Shown here in pieces: positions 5,079-32,873 of a DNA stretch of 64,000 nucleotides. The stretch's first letter is position 1. Each line of letters begins with the position of its first letter. Made by a program: the position numbers and the translations under genes. The notes under the pieces are model-generated. The model saw only the letters and a program-made list of their open reading frames with translations, was not told the DNA's origin and did no database searches. Origin of the DNA: a virus; the IMG/VR virus record IMGVR_UViG_3300042389_000724, positions 31,390 to 95,389 of that record, one strand, 5' to 3'.

Positions 5079-5110
5079 AGGGGCGCACTTCGGTGCGCCT
5101 CTTTCTTTTT
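5079..5110 (+). terminator. Rho-independent terminator after gp32 (possibly bidirectional)
   Basis: AGGGGCGCAC-TTCG-GTGCGCCTCT hairpin with a cUUCGg loop followed by a T tract; lies between convergent genes. Confidence 0.85.
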
Positions 5111-7316
5111 AGAAAGAGTGTGATGCTCTTTGCATCGTTAGTATTGTTGGTTCACTGTTTCGTAGTCTCAAATCGTCATTGAAGTTGTTGGTGGTGTTGT
5201 TGATCTTGGTTTGCACAACGGAGTTGACAGATGGAGCAGCAGGCTTCGCTGTCCCCACTGCTGCTGCTTTTTCTGCATCAAGAGCATTCATCTCATTATT
5301 GTACTGCTGAACCATCTTGCCTAGCGAAGTGTTTGGCGAGGCGGGAGCAGATATTTTCCCTTCAACCACAGAGGATTGATTTTGTCCCTGCTCTCCTTGT
5401 GATGTTGATACTGTTGAAGCACTTGCAATTCCTGCTGCTGCTCCTTCTGCCGCTTTTTCATTCTTCTGTTGCTCGGCTCCCCCAACATCAATGAGCGATC
5501 CGATTCCTGGAATAGATGAAACCATGTCATAGATTTTTCTTCCACCGACCGCTTCACCCAAATACTCTGCAATATTAGATCCTACCCATTCTCCACCCAG
5601 TGTTCCTACAAGCGTTCCTATTCCTGGAATTGGAATCATTGAGCCTAGGATACCGCCACCAACAGATCCGAGAACACTTCCCAAAACTTTAACCAGTCCT
5701 ACGCCTAGTTTTTCTTTCTTTTCGTCTGGTGACATTTCGGCATCATTTTTAATGCTTGCCAAATCTATTGCGCCCATGCCAGCAGTTATCAATGCCCCTA
5801 GACCTGGTATGGATACGATAGCCTTCAGAATTTTTCCTGAACTAGACTTTACTGCACTGCCTATAGCCTTTGCTGGACTCAGATTGCTTACTGCTCCAGA
5901 AACAGAACCCCATGCACGCGACAGCCATCCCCCCGCTTTGCCAGCGGTTGATGCTATTGAAGTTCCCATTCCTTTTGTTGCGGAAGCCACAGATGAACCA
6001 ACAGTTTTTGCAGCACCAACAACTTTTCCTCCAGCCTTTCCTATCATGCCACCGATAGACTTGGCATCTCGTACAAGAGGTGTATCTTTGATCAATCCGA
6101 ATGCCTTGCTTCCGAGACTTCCTATTGCTCCAAGAGCCTTGCCGCCTAGTTTTTTAGCACCAGATAGAATACCGCGACCCGTTCCCGCTAATCCTGTTTC
6201 AGTTAGCATGGACATTAGGTTTCCTAGAATACCGCTTTCGCCGTCTTGTTTTCCGAATCCTAGTAGTTTTGCCAAACCAGAAAGAAGACCACCGCTTTTT
6301 TGTGGTTTTTCTGATGCTGGTGTTGGTTTTATTCCAAGAGACTCTAGTTCTGCTTCTCTATCAGACAGTTCTTTTGTCTGTGGTTTGAATTGCTCTACTA
6401 GAAGTTTTCTTATCTCTGATATTTCTTTGTAGATTGAACCTAGAGTTGTGTCTTCTCTTCCAGAAATTAGACCTGGTATATCTGATGCCCGAGTGCCACC
6501 CGACATCTGACGGGGAATTCGACCACCAGCATAGATGTCGATGTCTGCGTTTCTCTTTCCTCTTCGTGCAATTGATCTCTGAAGACCCCCAGAATATCTT
6601 TCTAGTTCTTCCTGTGTTTCTCTTCTTTGCTTTAGGAACTCACCTAGAATTCCTCCAACAACTGGTATCTTTGAAGCCAGTCTTTCGGGAAGAGTCTTTC
6701 GGAAAGATTGTGCTTTTTCCTTGATGAACTCTTGGAAAGATGTTCTTTTCTTCAATTGCTCTTCTACGGGCGCAACAATCTCATCTAGTTTCGCTGCGAT
6801 GTCAGATTGTTCACCCTGAGTCTTCTTTGCCAACTCTCGGATGAATTTGATTTTAGCGTAGATTCGTTTTGCTTCATCGTATGATGCGCCGATAGATTGC
6901 TCGGATAACTGCGTGGCTTCATCCATCAATTCTCTTGCAGCCGCAGCAGCAGGATCTTGTCCCAAGAATCGACTTCTGTTTTGGGATATGTAATCTTCTA
7001 CGGTGGAGCGAACACCTTTCTGCCCTTCCATCCCGACAACATATTTGTCTAGTTCAGATGTTTCAAACCCCATCTCTTTTCTTCGTATCCCTATGGATTC
7101 CAGCAGACCAATTTCTTTTGGCTGATCTGTAGTCTGTTGGGTGTTCTCTGCTGATACTACTGTGGGTGCTGCTGTGGCTGAAGCAGGACTCATTACGGAT
7201 TCAAGAGTAGCAGTGGACGCTGATTTTTCGATGGGCATAAACCGACCCATAGCGTCTCTCTTTCGAGTCGCTGCTAGTTTCTGCCGTGTTGAAAGTTTAG
7301 ACCGTCTTCTAGCCAT
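5109..7316 (-). CDS. Baseplate hub / tape-measure-like protein (gp29-like)
   Basis: 735 aa: helical charged N-half, Gly/Ala-rich amphipathic and hydrophobic segments (IPIPGIGTLVGTLGG), C-terminal NNTTNN motif; downstream of gp26/gp51; AAAGGAG SD. Confidence 0.75.
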   Translation of the reverse strand: MARRRSKLSTRQKLAATRKRDAMGRFMPIEKSASTATLESVMSPASATAAPTVVSAENTQQTTDQPKEIGLLESIGIRRKEMGFETSELDKYVVGMEGQKGVRSTVEDYISQNRSRFLGQDPAAAAARELMDEATQLSEQSIGASYDEAKRIYAKIKFIRELAKKTQGEQSDIAAKLDEIVAPVEEQLKKRTSFQEFIKEKAQSFRKTLPERLASKIPVVGGILGEFLKQRRETQEELERYSGGLQRSIARRGKRNADIDIYAGGRIPRQMSGGTRASDIPGLISGREDTTLGSIYKEISEIRKLLVEQFKPQTKELSDREAELESLGIKPTPASEKPQKSGGLLSGLAKLLGFGKQDGESGILGNLMSMLTETGLAGTGRGILSGAKKLGGKALGAIGSLGSKAFGLIKDTPLVRDAKSIGGMIGKAGGKVVGAAKTVGSSVASATKGMGTSIASTAGKAGGWLSRAWGSVSGAVSNLSPAKAIGSAVKSSSGKILKAIVSIPGLGALITAGMGAIDLASIKNDAEMSPDEKKEKLGVGLVKVLGSVLGSVGGGILGSMIPIPGIGTLVGTLGGEWVGSNIAEYLGEAVGGRKIYDMVSSIPGIGSLIDVGGAEQQKNEKAAEGAAAGIASASTVSTSQGEQGQNQSSVVEGKISAPASPNTSLGKMVQQYNNEMNALDAEKAAAVGTAKPAAPSVNSVVQTKINNTTNNFNDDLRLRNSEPTILTMQRASHSF

Positions 7317-7345
7317 GTTACTCCTTTGGGATCATGGTGAATTGG

Positions 7346-7540
7346 TCACAATTGCTTTTGATTGCTAACCTTGTCTTTTTCTTTTTTCAGGTGAGCAATT
7401 AGCATTTGTATGTATACCTCTCTCTCCCAAGGTATCATGCTTTCTAATTCTGCAAGAGAATAGCCGTGGTGCTGTAGAAGGCTGAAATTCAACTGGAAGA
7501 ATGCCCCCAAGTCAGTATGACAGAGGGCTATTGAAAAAAA
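7346..7540 (-). CDS. gp51: gp51-like baseplate hub assembly chaperone ORF (not in ORF track; likely reached by -1 frameshift from gp26)
   Basis: Manual translation gives FFSIALCHTDLGAFFQLNFSLLQHHGYSLAELESMIPWEREVYIQMLIAHLKKEKDKVSNQKQL*. The NF.L.QHH.YSL.E.E.MIPWER..Y motif is typical of T4-like gp51-type small proteins. No ATG precedes the motif. Confidence 0.8.
   Translation of the reverse strand, partial: FFSIALCHTDLGAFFQLNFSLLQHHGYSLAELESMIPWEREVYIQMLIAHLKKEKDKVSNQKQL
7503..7540 (-). promoter_or_regulatory. Putative -1 programmed ribosomal frameshift signal
   Basis: mRNA reads GAU UUU UUU CAA UAG: slippery U-UUU-UUU (7540-7534), 5-nt spacer, then hairpin GCCCUC-U-GUCA-UAC-UGAC-UU-GGGGGC (7528-7503). 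Confidence 0.65.
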
Positions 7541-8238
7541 TCAGATACGCTCTTGAGTTCTACCTTTACCGCACTTCCACAAGATGGGCAATTGTAGTTG
7601 AATGAATACTTCAACTCGGGTGATGTCTGAATGAAGTCTATGAGTTTTGCAAACTGATCTGGCATCATGTTATCCACGAAGTCAGATATTTCTTTTGGAG
7701 ATATGTCTGATGCTTGATGGAGTTGATCGTTCAGCACTACCGCTTCTATGCACTTCTTTGAAAGTTCAAAAGCCATCTCTACTTCGTCTTTTGTGTAGTC
7801 AAAGTCATGGATGGATGGATACCGCATGATGAGAGATAGATTGTCGTTTATGATAACCGATGTGTCTTCCGCCTGTTCTTGTTTTTTGCCGATGGTTATT
7901 TCATCTAGTTTGATCTTGATGTTCGTTGATTTTTGGCAATTAGTGCAGGTCACTTGGGGTTTGACTTCCTCACCCACAGACTTGGATCGTATCTGTAGGA
8001 ATGCATACTCTGTGTCAGCAGCACACAACTTTCGTGTATCCAACACACCGTTTGTGCATACAGAAATGACATTTCGCATAGCGTCATTGATCTGATTTGG
8101 ATTTTTTGATTGGAGGGCGATAAGAAGTATCTTTTCTTCCTTTACGACGAACGGACGAAACTTTACTGTTTGGTTTGAAACAGGAAGCGTCATTGTATAT
8201 TGAGGAAGAGAAGCATTTTGTAAATTCAGTGTAGCCAT
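7528..8238 (-). CDS. gp26: Baseplate hub assembly protein gp26 (T4_baseplate family)
   Basis: LP.Y...LP.S...VKFRPFVVKEEKILL, EYAFLQIRSKSVGE, two CxxC motifs, MRYP, ends DFFQ. Confidence 0.9.
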   Translation of the reverse strand: MATLNLQNASLPQYTMTLPVSNQTVKFRPFVVKEEKILLIALQSKNPNQINDAMRNVISVCTNGVLDTRKLCAADTEYAFLQIRSKSVGEEVKPQVTCTNCQKSTNIKIKLDEITIGKKQEQAEDTSVIINDNLSLIMRYPSIHDFDYTKDEVEMAFELSKKCIEAVVLNDQLHQASDISPKEISDFVDNMMPDQFAKLIDFIQTSPELKYSFNYNCPSCGSAVKVELKSVSDFFQ

Positions 8239-8266
8239 AGTGATCCTTTCAATGAAGATGAACTAT

Positions 8267-9013
8267 TTATCGTCTTATTCTTGTGGGTGCGCCGCCATTC
8301 ATCAAGGAAAACGCTGTTTGTGGGTCGTATAGACCGTTCACGGTTCCGTCTGCACCTACTCGGTAGATTTTCCCGTCTGGTCCGTTTACGAACTTTTGAA
8401 CCTGTGCTTGTGGAGCAGATTGTGCTGCGGATGGATTTGCGGCGGCAATAGACGAGTTGATGCCTGGTCCGATGTATTGTGGTGTGTATTTTCTGAACGA
8501 TAGAGTAATGTCTTGGCGCATCACTTCGTTGTCTTTTTCATATCCTAATTGGATATCACCTAGTGCTTTGGGGTAGACTTCTTCCACTATGAATTTGTGT
8601 GTTGCAAAATCATTCTTTGTGATAACGCTTATTTCCATGTTGCTGATGTAGTCTTCGTAGTACGCAAATTTGTAGTTTGATGTGCTAGAGACAAGACTCA
8701 TCCATGTTTCAAAAAATGCTCGTTCTCGGAGATCAGCGGACAGAACCATCGACAAGTTTAGTTCTCCGCTATAGATTTGCTCGTATGGCATATTTCTAGC
8801 AGGACCATACAACCTGTACGGTGTTGTAGAGAACGATCTGCCTGGTATGGTTGCAGAATCGCAGCGGATCATGATTTGTCGTAGATCTTGAGGATCTTTG
8901 GTGGGAAATGTTTTGGGGTAGTTCACAAGCACTTCGTACCTGTTGCTGTACGCTATGCCAGTCTGCGATATAGAGTTGATCAATTCGTTGATGTTTGACG
9001 GAAGAAAGGTCAT
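8267..9013 (-). CDS. gp54: Baseplate tail-tube initiator gp54 (tube-protein family)
   Basis: SNRYEV...P, RCDSATIPGRS..T, YGP.R.MPY, R.FFETW, EEVYPK..G.I.L; synteny next to gp2/gp4. Confidence 0.8.
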   Translation of the reverse strand: MTFLPSNINELINSISQTGIAYSNRYEVLVNYPKTFPTKDPQDLRQIMIRCDSATIPGRSFSTTPYRLYGPARNMPYEQIYSGELNLSMVLSADLRERAFFETWMSLVSSTSNYKFAYYEDYISNMEISVITKNDFATHKFIVEEVYPKALGDIQLGYEKDNEVMRQDITLSFRKYTPQYIGPGINSSIAAANPSAAQSAPQAQVQKFVNGPDGKIYRVGADGTVNGLYDPQTAFSLMNGGAPTRIRR

Positions 9014-9015
9014 GG

Positions 9016-9600
9016 TTATCCTCGGAATGATTTGTGTAGTGTATCTCTGTACACTGTTGTGGCTCTTGCTTTAACGAATCTTGATGTCTCCGACTTTACC
9101 ATGTCTTCCCATATCTGAAACGGAATCACAACAGGTCGCCGTTTCATTCCACCCCAAGTGTATCTTCGGTAGCAAGGTTTGAAAAATCTGTATCGTCTGC
9201 TGGCATCTAGGCGATCATAATCAACCATCAATCTAGTTCTCCACTCATCTGACGCTTTTATTGTGGGTAGATTACGCATGATTGAATCGAACAGAAAGGT
9301 TCTGTGTTGGGGCATCAAAAAATGTAGATTGATACCTTCGAATCCTCCCCTATAAACATCGGTGATCAGTACTAGTGGAAAACTGTCATAGTATGTATTT
9401 CTCAAAATGAAAGATTGGCTTTCTGGTTTGTATTTGAAGAAAACCATCTGACCCTGAAATAGGCGGTTTGGTATGGACAGGGTTCCGTTTTTTTGCAGGG
9501 ATTGAATAAGACCGATGTAGGTTTGATCCGTTGCACCCAAAGCCGTTGTGGTTTCGGCTATTACGGACTGTATTTCTTTCTGTAGATCGGGCGTGTTCAT
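9016..9600 (-). CDS. gp2: DNA end protector protein gp2
   Basis: G.M.FF.Y.P, YYD.FPLV, GF.GINLH.L, PCYRRY motifs; start at ATG 9600 overlaps the gp4 stop (ATGA). Confidence 0.85.
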   Translation of the reverse strand: MNTPDLQKEIQSVIAETTTALGATDQTYIGLIQSLQKNGTLSIPNRLFQGQMVFFKYKPESQSFILRNTYYDSFPLVLITDVYRGGFEGINLHFLMPQHRTFLFDSIMRNLPTIKASDEWRTRLMVDYDRLDASRRYRFFKPCYRRYTWGGMKRRPVVIPFQIWEDMVKSETSRFVKARATTVYRDTLHKSFRG

Positions 9601-10034
9601 GGTTTTTTGAACAGGTCTTGTTCGGTAAGTATCTTGAATTCCCACCCCTTTGCTTCGGACACCCTCTTCGCTGCTTCCCACTTTGCACTATTTACGAGCC
9701 AGGTCTTTACTTCGGAGATGTATGTTCTTGTTACTTTGGTTTTCTTCTCTGGTTGTTTGCACTGCTTCATTGGCTTGATTTCTACCAACCAAGTCTTTAT
9801 ACCTTCTGGTGTTTTGACCTCAACTAAAAAATCTACAAAGTATCTGTGTTGTTTCTTGTCCACGGGGCTTACATATGGAATGACTACCTCTTCCGATGCC
9901 CAGCGAATAACATTGGAGTTCTGATCACAGAACTTCATGAATTTTCTTTCCCACATACTTCTGTACATGATCTTGGTGGGATCGCCCATGTATTTGGACG
10001 AATTATGAGGTTTAAAAAAGCCCTTGTATGCCAT
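9597..10034 (-). CDS. gp4: Head completion nuclease gp4 (TnsA-like PD-(D/E)XK)
   Basis: MAYKG.FKP.N..KY.GDP..I.YRS.WE.KFM, WASEE..IPY.SP.D, HRYFVDF, EIKP, N.AKW.AA; true start is MAYKG at 10034. Confidence 0.95.
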   Translation of the reverse strand: MAYKGFFKPHNSSKYMGDPTKIMYRSMWERKFMKFCDQNSNVIRWASEEVVIPYVSPVDKKQHRYFVDFLVEVKTPEGIKTWLVEIKPMKQCKQPEKKTKVTRTYISEVKTWLVNSAKWEAAKRVSEAKGWEFKILTEQDLFKKP

Positions 10035-30900: not shown

Positions 30901-32873
30901 TCGACAACAAGAAGTACACCAAGACAATCAAGCCAAATCCTTCGAATAATGTAAACTGGTTGGGTTTCTTGAAGATCACTCCTCAAGTGACCACCATTTA
31001 TGACAAATCGGTAAGACCTGTTGTGAAAACCAATTCTCTCATGGAGAATGATAATTGGCTTTCATCTAACGCAAATGATGATCGTGGATTCGGTACTCAA
31101 TGGAACGATTGGGAGAGCATTTGGTTTGGGATTAACGATATAGAGGAAGAGCAGCAGGACATACAGAACCGAATTCTACAAACTCCTCGTATAAATTCCG
31201 AGTCTTCGGTTTCCAATATCAATTCTGGAAATGTCAAAGTTTCAGCAAGCAGAAACGCACAATCTGTGGATCAGCGCACAAGTAGTTTCATGCGTACCAG
31301 ATATCTGAAAAACCGAATCAAGACAAAAATCGAAAACAAAATAATCGACAGAAGTGTAATTCCATATATCCCATATCAAACTGTGTCGGGATTGGCTACT
31401 GGACTGAAGCCAAATTCTCAGAGTCTTTCTGTGTTCTTTGACAGTGATCTTGTGTTGTCTGGAGTTACGAGTGATGAAAACGGTACATCAAGGTTTTCGT
31501 TTGACATCATAAACTCTTCTGCGCTAGTAGGAAGCAGAACTGTTCGTATTTCTGATGCAGACGCAATTGAAAATTCTACTCTTTCTGCTGATGCGGTTTA
31601 CCACTGCTCTGGGATTTTGAATCAGAGAGATTCTGGATCTTTTTCTACAAGACCCCCAGAACTACGCAGGCAGTCTGTTAATAGTGAAACCATAGCAAAA
31701 GATCCGTTCAACCGCGATCTTGATACAATCGAAAACAATCAGTGGTCAGATCCTCTTTCACAAACATTCTTTGTCGATAAGAAAACGAATGCAGAAGGAA
31801 TTTTCCTTAACAGCGTTTCTCTATTCTTCTCGTCCAAGGATTCGAAACTGCCTGTTGCTGTTCAGATTCGTCCCACTCTTTCGGGATATCCTTCTCCATC
31901 TGTTGTTCTGCCTTTCAGTACAGTTGTCAAGATGCCTTCTGAAGTAAATGCATCTAGCGTTCCAGCCGAAACCAAGTTTGAGTTCAGCAGTCCTGTGTAT
32001 TTGGAACCTGGAGAATATTCGATTTGTGTTTTGACAAACAGCGATGACTATGAGTTGTTTGCTGCCGAGTCTTCGTTCAACTCCATACCAAATTCTTCTT
32101 CCACATCTGGAAGAGCAGGAAACAATCAATTGGTGGGAACGCTCTTTGTTGCACAGGGATTGGGTGCTGCTGTTCCAGACAATACCACGGATCTTATGTT
32201 CTCATTGGAACGCTGCGAGTTTGCTTCTCAAGGAACATATAGCATCAATGGTGCTACCAATCTTTCCGATGTTCAAGTAGTGAAGTTTTATTCGAGTGAG
32301 ATTATTCCGAGTGGTTGTTCGATCAGCCGACAGATCGGAACAACAGAATTTTACAATGGAGAGTCGATTTATCCAGAGACTGCTATTACACCAAACATAG
32401 TCTATACACTTCGTCGTGGTGCGAGTAATGCAGTTTCTCCAGTCTTCGACAGGCAGACTCTTGTTGGAACATCCGTTCAAATGTACACCAATCGCACCTC
32501 CACATCTCCTTATTCTGAATATGTGTCACGAGTTGTTGAGTTGCCCGACTACATTACTTCCAATGGTATTGCGGTTTTCGTGGATGAAAACACTCCCACT
32601 CAAACACAGATAAGCGTACAGTACCGATGCAGCGTTTCTGGCGAGACTGATATTTTTGACAAGCCTTGGGCGAATCTCAGTAGAAGTTTGAATACTCCAC
32701 AATTCACCAGTTCTTCGGATCTTGACTTCCGAGAGGCAGAGTTCAGGGGTGTTACCAGTTCATTCCAGTCCTATCAGATTAAAGTGAGACTGTCTTCTGC
32801 TGCATCCCCAACATATTCAAGAACTCCATCTGTTAGAAATATTCGTACCATCAGTTTCATACAACCAACCTAA
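27942..32873 (+). CDS. Large virion structural protein (DUF4815/VrlC-like)
   Basis: NPYYDDF, RVLFKPG..VQARELTQ.Q, GSYN.NAPGADR, LARRT.DESG.Y, YLPRIDK, DPLSQTF, F.F.SPVYL. Confidence 0.88.
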   Translation: MAYDPSIFNINPYYDDFDAAKGFLRVLFKPGYAVQARELTQAQTLLQNQLSKIGDHLFKDGSRIIGGGISVRNASYIMVDAGVSSPLLGATNYEDLIGSVLTSSIDGDLTEARVVHYVAPDVSSDGLLVLIVDFVSGFAFESSFNLTKGSFQYNGFVPAPSAFLDGVEYPSTGTCKLVSVNEGVFYIDGFFVRSSTQFFSPYEKNAVRRDFRFDGFSQLNKKIGFLITRDGVTERDDNTLRDPAIGSYNYNAPGADRYKITPVLSQVELLDTPDDFVELVRFEGGKVVKKADRISYGEIEKTLARRTFDESGSYSVNPFDISIKRTADSTEYFNLVMGQGKAYILGQEVENAYPKVLPFPRAQTVQEEGTSSPLSYDFSTGNYLDVTFNSDSQTLFASNLPSIASGSVLARFFGTTNNTVATGYVHGAIPTNANGVSAKTYRLYLYGISGAVQSGRSACIYLHTNGNTLGRFAPSSGTTFPSPSQTVQQSLVYEVTPGYAVSDFSSLRVVGKLVGGNTNLVAASHTAPNTTYSVTKDHFSDSLVSPSSSVFSFFNYGSGANTSSSDTQEIAIIDQNGNAFVPPASGTILSSVDTSQFSLVITNAANGFTSGSFRIAAPVIYTPVISDVNTYRYKTTATSTHQFVTNSFKTDSVGRKYFTLPHIDVFSISSIVNQADQQIFADDFELDDGQRESHYENARLYIKENASSKSVYNGTAGTAITLVVSYSRFTHNGLQCAPFIGKHSYTDLEYEKIPLYTNPRTGKTVSLANCIDFRRSGLTSSVAMLKPYGRSEFGTIGDTQIKYSHYLPRIDKICLKADVEDGSPLFFLESGTPDISPVSPSDPADSLVLATLTVPAYTHNPEDIMISPVNSKRYTMSDIGRMEKRVDDVEVFTKLSLSETELETRSLKTSVSQTEPLKTSIFVDELYGHSSSDVVSNFHSCSIDLERSELRPFFVPFDVGFVEGVTSDTRESADGIVTLNYTSKLYIDNKKYTKTIKPNPSNNVNWLGFLKITPQVTTIYDKSVRPVVKTNSLMENDNWLSSNANDDRGFGTQWNDWESIWFGINDIEEEQQDIQNRILQTPRINSESSVSNINSGNVKVSASRNAQSVDQRTSSFMRTRYLKNRIKTKIENKIIDRSVIPYIPYQTVSGLATGLKPNSQSLSVFFDSDLVLSGVTSDENGTSRFSFDIINSSALVGSRTVRISDADAIENSTLSADAVYHCSGILNQRDSGSFSTRPPELRRQSVNSETIAKDPFNRDLDTIENNQWSDPLSQTFFVDKKTNAEGIFLNSVSLFFSSKDSKLPVAVQIRPTLSGYPSPSVVLPFSTVVKMPSEVNASSVPAETKFEFSSPVYLEPGEYSICVLTNSDDYELFAAESSFNSIPNSSSTSGRAGNNQLVGTLFVAQGLGAAVPDNTTDLMFSLERCEFASQGTYSINGATNLSDVQVVKFYSSEIIPSGCSISRQIGTTEFYNGESIYPETAITPNIVYTLRRGASNAVSPVFDRQTLVGTSVQMYTNRTSTSPYSEYVSRVVELPDYITSNGIAVFVDENTPTQTQISVQYRCSVSGETDIFDKPWANLSRSLNTPQFTSSSDLDFREAEFRGVTSSFQSYQIKVRLSSAASPTYSRTPSVRNIRTISFIQPT

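Follow-up and report, generated by a model that had tools for sequence, protein, structure and literature searches.

A conserved slippery site predicted to join gp26-like and gp51-like reading frames by −1 frameshifting in T4-type phages

The gp26-like gene and the overlapping −1 frame

The DNA analysed was a stretch of 64,000 nucleotides (nt) from the IMG/VR virus record IMGVR_UViG_3300042389_000724 (positions 31,390 to 95,389; hereafter the window, numbered from its first letter), and the subject of this report is a minus-strand locus at 7346-8238, where a gp26-like gene is followed in the −1 frame by a gp51-like tail. The record is 95 kb long with an estimated completeness of 53%, and the closest cultured relative of the source phage at the DNA level was Pelagibacter phage Mosig (Kyanoviridae). 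The zero-frame gene (7528-8238, minus strand; identified from the list of open reading frames (ORFs), PF12322 and phrog_150) encodes a short product of 236 amino acids (aa) that ends in ...SVSDFFQ before the stop codon, and a Shine-Dalgarno (SD)-like AAGGA (8244-8248, minus strand) was read in the sequence 5 nt upstream of its ATG (8236-8238). Residues 12-235 matched PF12322 (T4_baseplate) with an E value of 1.8e-56 and 191.7 bits (gathering score, 24.5) over profile positions 2-218 of 219, which places the ORF in this family, and the zero frame also covered positions 7-233 of the 282 of phrog_150 ('baseplate hub').

The 3′ end of the gp26-like ORF reads GAT TTT TTT CAA TAG. It contains the putative slippery heptamer U_UUU_UUU (7534-7540, minus strand; sequence and conservation) in the X_XXY_YYZ phase of the zero frame, with the zero-frame stop UAG (7528-7530, minus strand) one codon past it. 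Directly 5′ of the heptamer the −1 frame is closed by a UGA (7541-7543, minus strand), which sets the overlap: both frames are open over 16 nt only (TGATTTTTTTCAATAG, the T7 run and its flanks), and a change of frame is therefore possible only on the T7 run. On both strands of the window together, 6 T7 runs were observed against 21 ± 6 expected from dinucleotide shuffles, i.e. about 3.5-fold fewer, which argues that the heptamer was not placed there by chance. As a separate observation, the depletion of T7/A7 runs in the window suggests a general avoidance of slippery homopolymers in the phage.

The −1 extension (7346-7540, minus strand; phrog_634, phrog_150 and hhalign) consists of 64 codons and the stop UGA (7346-7348). 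Its peptide matched phrog_634 ('baseplate hub assembly catalyst', gp51) with an E value of 4.4e-24 over profile positions 56-117 of 121, and with its alignment to the C-terminus of T4 gp51 described below it carries the gp51 C-terminal module. The same peptide matched positions 231-279 of phrog_150; as the zero frame leaves that profile at position 233, the profile match is colinear across the frame change. The tail adds 62 new residues after ...DFF, and the whole recoded gene (7346-8238, minus strand; sequence comparisons) is predicted to give a long product of 297 aa, composed of gp26 residues 1-235 and tail residues 3-64 and colinear with T4 gp51, with ...SVSDFFSIALCH... as the predicted transframe peptide and ...SVSDFFSIALCHTDLG... 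as the peptide spanning the junction. Judged from these features, a one-base slip very probably lets one gene give rise to two proteins, one of 236 residues and an extended one of 297. An earlier note on this DNA had read the gp26 end as GAU UUU UUU CAA UAG with the heptamer at 7540-7534, and had described a gp51-like −1 frame open for 64 codons; both readings agree with the present results, as does its short product of 236 aa, and its fusion of about 298 aa is corrected to 297 aa.

Conservation of the junction among relatives

A scan of IMG/VR with gp26 gave 78 loci, to which 7 GenBank phages were added; the combined set comprised 63 distinct genes, 50 distinct junctions and 46 distinct tails from 13 lineages, with gp26 identities to the window of 22-98%. 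The tail lay in the −1 frame in all 63 distinct genes, with the tblastn match beginning at the FF of the slip site, and the zero frame read NNT TTT TTY in 63/63 genes and 13/13 lineages (T7 in 39 genes, T6C in 24). The first Phe codon was TTT in every one of the 63 genes, against 410 TTT to 182 TTC (69% TTT) elsewhere in the same genes. The codon before the heptamer was always NNT though it encoded Asp, Ser, Asn, Thr or Ala, which indicates a constraint on the nucleotides and not on the protein. A conserved X_XXY_YYZ heptamer with constraint at synonymous sites was thus found within the overlap, and the zero-frame stop followed 0-1 codon past it in 59 of the 63 relatives. Conservation of the heptamer and of the −1 relation was a check proposed in the earlier note, and both were present throughout the set.

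The 46 distinct tails could be aligned without gaps from FF, well upstream of any start codon, with the consensus FF.i.L.H..L..yy..NF.LmqhhkysL.Ele.M.PWERevYi, and where some tails have Met, others have Leu, Ile or Ala in the same column. This alignment shows that coding constraint on the tail is clear and starts at the slip site.

A tblastn search of GenBank phages with the tail gave 530 records carrying it in such an arrangement, namely 372 from Synechococcus phages, 61 from cyanophages, 33 from Vibrio phages, 24 from Prochlorococcus phages and 9 from Sinorhizobium phages, with fewer from Methylophilales, Pseudomonas, Pelagibacter and Caulobacter phages. Inspection of 60 of the 530 tblastn rows showed that each match started at query residue 1, and nearly all of the matched stretches in those rows overlapped an annotated gp26 gene. 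Longer proteins carrying the tail as a natural in-frame fusion were not found by a word-based search, which is weak evidence; T4 gp51 is such an in-frame protein, too diverged to share words with the query.

The 3′ hairpin and upstream elements

A candidate 3′ hairpin (GCCCUC/GGGGGC plus GUCA/UGAC; 7503-7528, minus strand; folding and comparison) follows the heptamer after a 5-nt spacer and consists of two stems (6 bp and 4 bp) separated by bulges of 1 nt and 2 nt. Its energy was −14.4 kcal/mol (z −3.77), none of 200 shuffles folded as well, and no 45-nt window within gp26 did so either. At least 9 of the 10 pairs were kept in all 15 distinct junctions of relatives with at least 64% gp26 identity. 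Among 21 distinct sequences with at least 51% identity the codons of the hairpin arms were nearly fixed (GCC 19/21, CTC 19/21, TTG 19/21, GGG 18/18), and the Leu, Ser and Ala codons further along the tail used 4-5 synonyms. The exceptions among the 21, loci L035 and L037, carry another hairpin (CUGCCA/UGGCAG) at nearly the same place. Other lineages have hairpins of their own in the corresponding position, as in GCCUGU/ACAGGC versus GCCUCU/AGAGGC, CCCUCU/AGAGGG (S-CAM4) and a 14-bp stem (S-PM2). The hairpin at 7503-7528 is a probable frameshift stimulator. As a universal element it was rejected, since its conservation is confined to relatives whose gp26 is at least 64% identical; the conserved hairpin that the earlier note had proposed as a check therefore holds in the clade of the window, where its arms are synonymously constrained, and elsewhere hairpins are lineage-specific.

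Upstream of the heptamer no SD-like element was found in the window (best anti-SD duplex, −3.3 kcal/mol), and the SD-like element about 10 nt upstream that marks sites of the dnaX type was present in other lineages only. In many lineages outside that of the window (loci L046, L047, L054, L064, L066, L067, L071, L081 (S-PM2) and L001 (Mosig)), GGAGG, AGGAG or AAGGGAG occurs 9-10 nt 5′ of T_TTT_TTY, with anti-SD duplexes of −7.6 to −11.5 kcal/mol, and the motif tends to occur where a 3′ hairpin was not seen. This stretch also encodes a conserved Leu-Glu-Gly, by which its coding and RNA roles are confounded.

Probable ribosomal slippage and alternative explanations

The phase-locked heptamer, the stimulators and the T6C variants are together best fitted by ribosomal −1 frameshifting, and we consider it highly likely that a ribosomal −1 frameshift on U_UUU_UUU, helped by the 3′ hairpin, yields the fusion.

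Transcriptional slippage, in which the polymerase would add one U on the T7 run and the same 297-aa fusion would be translated, was considered improbable. One added U encodes exactly the same protein, as read from the sequence, and a homopolymer run, present as T7 in 39 of the 63 relatives, is required by transcriptional and ribosomal slippage alike. In bacterial transcriptional slippage, the limit that the length of the T run sets on the polymerase is well established, and in 24 of the 63 relatives the run stops at six T's (TTTTTTC), a short template for a polymerase to slip on efficiently. The run always stands in the X_XXY_YYZ phase, which also speaks against the polymerase, and the accompanying elements, a 3′ hairpin at 5 nt and, elsewhere, an SD-like GGAGG 9-10 nt upstream, are those that classically stimulate −1 shifting by the ribosome, dnaX being an example. 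Small parts of the stretch occur in two metatranscriptome runs, in the form of assembled contigs only. A contig from an RNA library, from a relative of 93% identity, spans the run without an insertion, although contigs cannot show rare variants.

A separate small gp51, translated alone from the TTG at 7508-7510 (54 aa) or from the ATG at tail codon 35, was given little credence, and its production by termination-reinitiation after the gp26 stop equally little. Small gp51 proteins are annotated in GenBank (Mosig, 44 aa; S-PM2, 57 aa; phi-pp2, 39 aa; EniLVp02, 57 aa), and an ATG lies 5-7 codons past the slip site in S-PM2 and in some Vibrio phages. In the window, however, translation of the −1 frame could begin at a TTG (tail codon 11 or 17) or at the first ATG (codon 35), and none of these codons is preceded by an SD-like motif, which extends to every candidate what the earlier note had seen at the upstream TTG; the TTG at 7508-7510 moreover sits within the hairpin stem. 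The gp26 ATG is preceded by AAGGA and the ATG of the downstream gene by AAGGAG. Among the relatives, an SD-like motif was present at 36/42 distinct gp26 starts and 24/38 downstream-gene starts. The independent SD and start for gp51 that the earlier note had named as a check were lacking in 49 of the 50 distinct junctions, where no start codon upstream of tail codon 21 is accompanied by an SD-like motif; in 7 of the 50 this stretch contains no ATG, GTG or TTG at all. The candidate starts also fall at differing codons across lineages, and the −1-frame peptide encoded ahead of them shows conservation and can be aligned with T4 gp51 from residue 201 onward. Independent initiation leaves unexplained the invariant heptamer, the NNT that precedes it and the absence of the heptamer from T4 gene 26. 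The second ORF accordingly has the form of a start-less frame that overlaps the 3′ end of the first by 16 nt in the −1 frame.

An artefact or decay has next to no probability and is refuted for practical purposes by the comparative data. In the former case a single 297-aa gene would appear broken through a sequencing error in the homopolymer; in the latter the tail would be a decaying remnant. Homopolymers are error-prone and the source contig was assembled from a metagenome, but all 63 distinct sequences, which stem from independent assemblies as well as cultured phages and include TTTTTTC forms, share the −1 break, and the tail is under a coding constraint at variance with decay.

Relationship to T4 gp26 and gp51

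Residues 1-201 of T4 gp51 (249 aa) matched PF12322 with an E value of 3.9e-52, and T4 gp26 (208 aa) matched the same profile. By hhalign, tail residues 3-47 were placed on residues 201-244 of T4 gp51 (E 1.8e-5), and by BLASTP residues 15-248 of T4 gp51 aligned with residues 26-290 of the predicted fusion; phrog_634 covers both T4 gp51 and the tail of the window. T4 gp51 is thus made up of a PF12322 domain and a tail, and on these comparisons it is the colinear homologue of the predicted fusion, with T4 gp26 the homologue of the unshifted product. It follows from this colinearity that T4 encodes the short and the long form as two paralogous genes. T4 genes 26 and 51 lie on opposite strands and are divergently transcribed, so a fusion is impossible in T4; as a negative control, T4 gene 26 keeps FF but encodes it as GAG TTC TTT, without the heptamer. 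Among complete genomes, one PF12322 copy each was counted in Mosig, S-PM2, phi-pp2 and EniLVp02, and two in T4.

Both T4 gp26 and gp51 appear among the hub assembly chaperones in Table 2 of Leiman et al. 2010 (PMC3004832), and gp51 is needed for assembly yet is absent from the particle (PMC3004832). In the T4 record (L083, 5803-6090) an internal in-frame product of gene 26, 26′, is annotated; T4 thus has another way of producing more than one form from this gene family.

Similarity of the gp26 model to tail assembly chaperones

The gp26 structure was modelled with AlphaFold2 (AF2) from an alignment of 47 sequences (predicted local distance difference test (pLDDT), 86; predicted template modelling score, 0.80), and the model was compared with 48,161 representative PDB chains in an exhaustive fold search by VIA-align. 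For model residues 1-98, structures of tail assembly chaperones (TACs) ranked first (3FGX, Rbstp2171; Z 7.9), second (2OB9, HK97 gp13 TAC; Z 7.3), third (3KLU, YqbN; Z 6.7) and fifth (5IR0, PLE1 TAC; Z 5.1). 2OB9, 3KLU and 3FGX have been called phage tail assembly chaperones (PMC9603447), and 5IR0 is the TAC of the satellite PLE1 (PMC12987554). A TAC-like fold was thereby found for the first ORF, with Z below 8 and no significant Foldseek match; the informative point in this modelling is that a single small functional class takes four of the top five ranks among 48,161 chains. Residues 94-236 include two CxxC knuckles with weak zinc-ribbon matches. The tail modelled alone by AF2 gave three helices (pLDDT 86), and a fold search with it gave nothing informative, only generic three-helix matches with Z below 6.

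Neighbouring genes

Read along the minus strand, a DNA end protector gene is followed, in this order, by a gene of the tube/tube-initiator family, gp26, the tail and a gene for a 735-aa protein. The upstream gene (8267-9013, minus strand; 248 aa) belongs to the tail-tube or baseplate tail-tube-initiator family (phrog_45 'tail tube', E 3.2e-35), and its syntenic counterpart in phage Mosig is annotated 'baseplate tail tube initiator'. The DNA end protector ORF (9016-9681, minus strand; phrog_429 over residues 71-214) is listed from a GTG and overlaps an upstream 169-aa ORF by 85 nt; its real start is probably the internal ATG at residue 28 (MNTPDLQ...).

The next gene downstream (5109-7316, minus strand; 735 aa; SD AAGGAG at 7321-7326) is a possible tape measure from its position and composition only. 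The protein lacks Cys and has a high content of Gly, Ala and Ser, and its homologues (454-1157 aa) are all 'hypothetical' or unnamed; the family has a conserved N-terminal part of 345 residues, a variable Gly-rich middle and a nearly invariant extreme C-terminus (...NNFNDDLR.RN.EPT...Q). The earlier note had called it a tape-measure-like gp29, and this was not borne out by homology: the protein matched nothing in Pfam or PHROGs, including PF25671 and PF24164, nothing by tblastn in 50,697 phage records, nothing below an E value of 0.37 by BLASTP against T4 gp29, and only unnamed viral clusters in the ESM Atlas. A profile of its homologues found no match in the PDB, PF25671 (T4 gp29 tape measure) found nothing at E ≤ 1 in the phage's own record, and the downstream genes of five relatives gave no tape-measure match in Pfam. 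In S-PM2 (L081:1682-3178), gp26/gp51 is followed by a 1167-aa protein whose N-terminal part matches ADP-ribosyltransferase families (PF01129, E 4.2e-6; PF03496, E 2.1e-5), which was unexpected at the position of a tape measure.

Proposed mechanism and implications

In the proposed mechanism, most ribosomes would read GAU UUU UUU CAA and stop at UAG to give the 236-aa protein, and a fraction of them would be held up by the hairpin 5 nt downstream. The held ribosomes would slip back by one base, with the two tRNA-Phe on UUU UUU re-pairing with UUU, and would then read 62 further residues in the −1 frame to give the 297-aa product, i.e. gp26 with a three-helix gp51-type tail. The two products would be made in a set ratio, which lambda G/GT needs, and might act like lambda gpG/gpGT: the TAC-like body common to both forms may keep the tail-length protein in the hub, and the minor long form may use its tail to recruit another tail or hub component. 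T4 would reach the same end with its two paralogous genes, 26 and 51. We infer from this scheme a function as chaperone of the tape measure.

Several points weigh against this interpretation. The 63 relatives share ancestry and their agreement does not represent 63 independent events, for which the 13 lineages are the fairer number. In a 76-nt context the hairpin is not exceptional (z only −1.36), about half of the lineages show no hairpin, and within the clade of the window it overlaps conserved codons. Foldseek found nothing significant in the PDB for the gp26 model, all fold matches lie at Z below 8, a range usual for best hits and in which chance matches occur, and the searches failed to identify the downstream gene as a tape measure.

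A report of a gp26/gp51 frameshift was not found in the full-text literature, a search that left subscription journals mostly outside its scope and is not proof of absence. Seven GenBank records of the frameshift type were examined and none carries a frameshift annotation; in them the tail is unannotated or appears as a 39-57-aa 'gp51' from an arbitrary internal ATG, and in the Mosig record the same two ORFs are annotated as separate genes. Annotation of the tail thus shows a gap in these records.

The G-T frameshift of tail chaperones has been described as conserved among long-tailed phages "except T4" (Atkins et al. 2016, PMC5009743). The −1 frameshift in TAC genes is among the most conserved viral recoding events, and the finding bears on this exception: as predicted here, the strongly conserved recoding site is a tail-chaperone −1 frameshift in a phage group thought to lack it, and T4-type phages may not be an exception. 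The frameshift seems, from their sequences, to be shared by cyanophages, pelagiphages, KVP40-like vibriophages and rhizobiophages, among others, and the arrangement in T4 suggests that T4 replaced it by gene duplication. We lean, with some reserve, towards PF12322 comprising the TACs of the whole T4 superfamily, with the single frameshifted gene as the usual and probably ancestral state and T4 and its close kin as derived. If true, T4 would cease to be an exception to the tail-chaperone frameshift, and gp51, whose 'catalytic' role has long lacked an explanation, would act as a GT-like minor form. A testable function is thereby offered for gp26 and gp51 as counterparts of gpG and gpGT.

Comparison with known systems

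The locus resembles the lambda gpG/gpGT system, an example of the conserved −1 frameshift in TAC genes (Levin 1993, Xu 2004, as reviewed in PMC5009743). In both, a −1 shift near the end of the first ORF leads onto a start-less second ORF and gives a short major and a long minor product, those of the window being predicted from sequence only. The gp26 model has a TAC-like N-terminal domain, and the order of a tube-family gene, a chaperone-like gene, the tail and a long Gly-rich gene recalls V-G-T-H of lambda. The two systems differ in that lambda gpG/gpT have no sequence similarity to the proteins of the window, and in the slippery site (G_GGA_AAG in lambda, U_UUU_UUU in the window). The earlier note had taken the gp26/gp51 pair as the T4-superfamily equivalent of G/GT, and the colinearity with T4 gp51 and the TAC-like fold support this proposal.

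The solved TACs (3FGX, 2OB9, 3KLU and 5IR0) are alike in that 81-88 residues of the gp26 model aligned with them, at identities of only 4-12% and root mean square deviations of 4.0-4.6 Å. They are single-domain proteins of about 100 aa, whereas gp26 is about twice the typical TAC size, with an added zinc-ribbon-like and alpha/beta part.

The site of E. coli dnaX (A_AAA_AAG with an upstream SD and a 3′ hairpin) is similar in having a heptamer followed by a 3′ hairpin; its shifted product is the shorter one, however, and the window lacks the upstream SD-like element. For P2, Christie et al. are said to have described in 2002 a tail chaperone, E/E+E′, made by a −1 shift on a T run. P2 is likewise a contractile-tailed phage with a T-run −1 shift, but its protein belongs to a different, smaller family and the likeness is one of mechanism only; a higher frameshift efficiency in P2 has been mentioned (Atkins 2016, PMC5009743).

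T4 gp26 and gp51 are the closest in sequence, both being members of PF12322, and gp51 shares the C-terminal YSL...MIP.ER module with the long form. In T4, however, they are encoded by separate genes without the heptamer, whereas in the window phage and its relatives a single gene is predicted to provide both forms by recoding.

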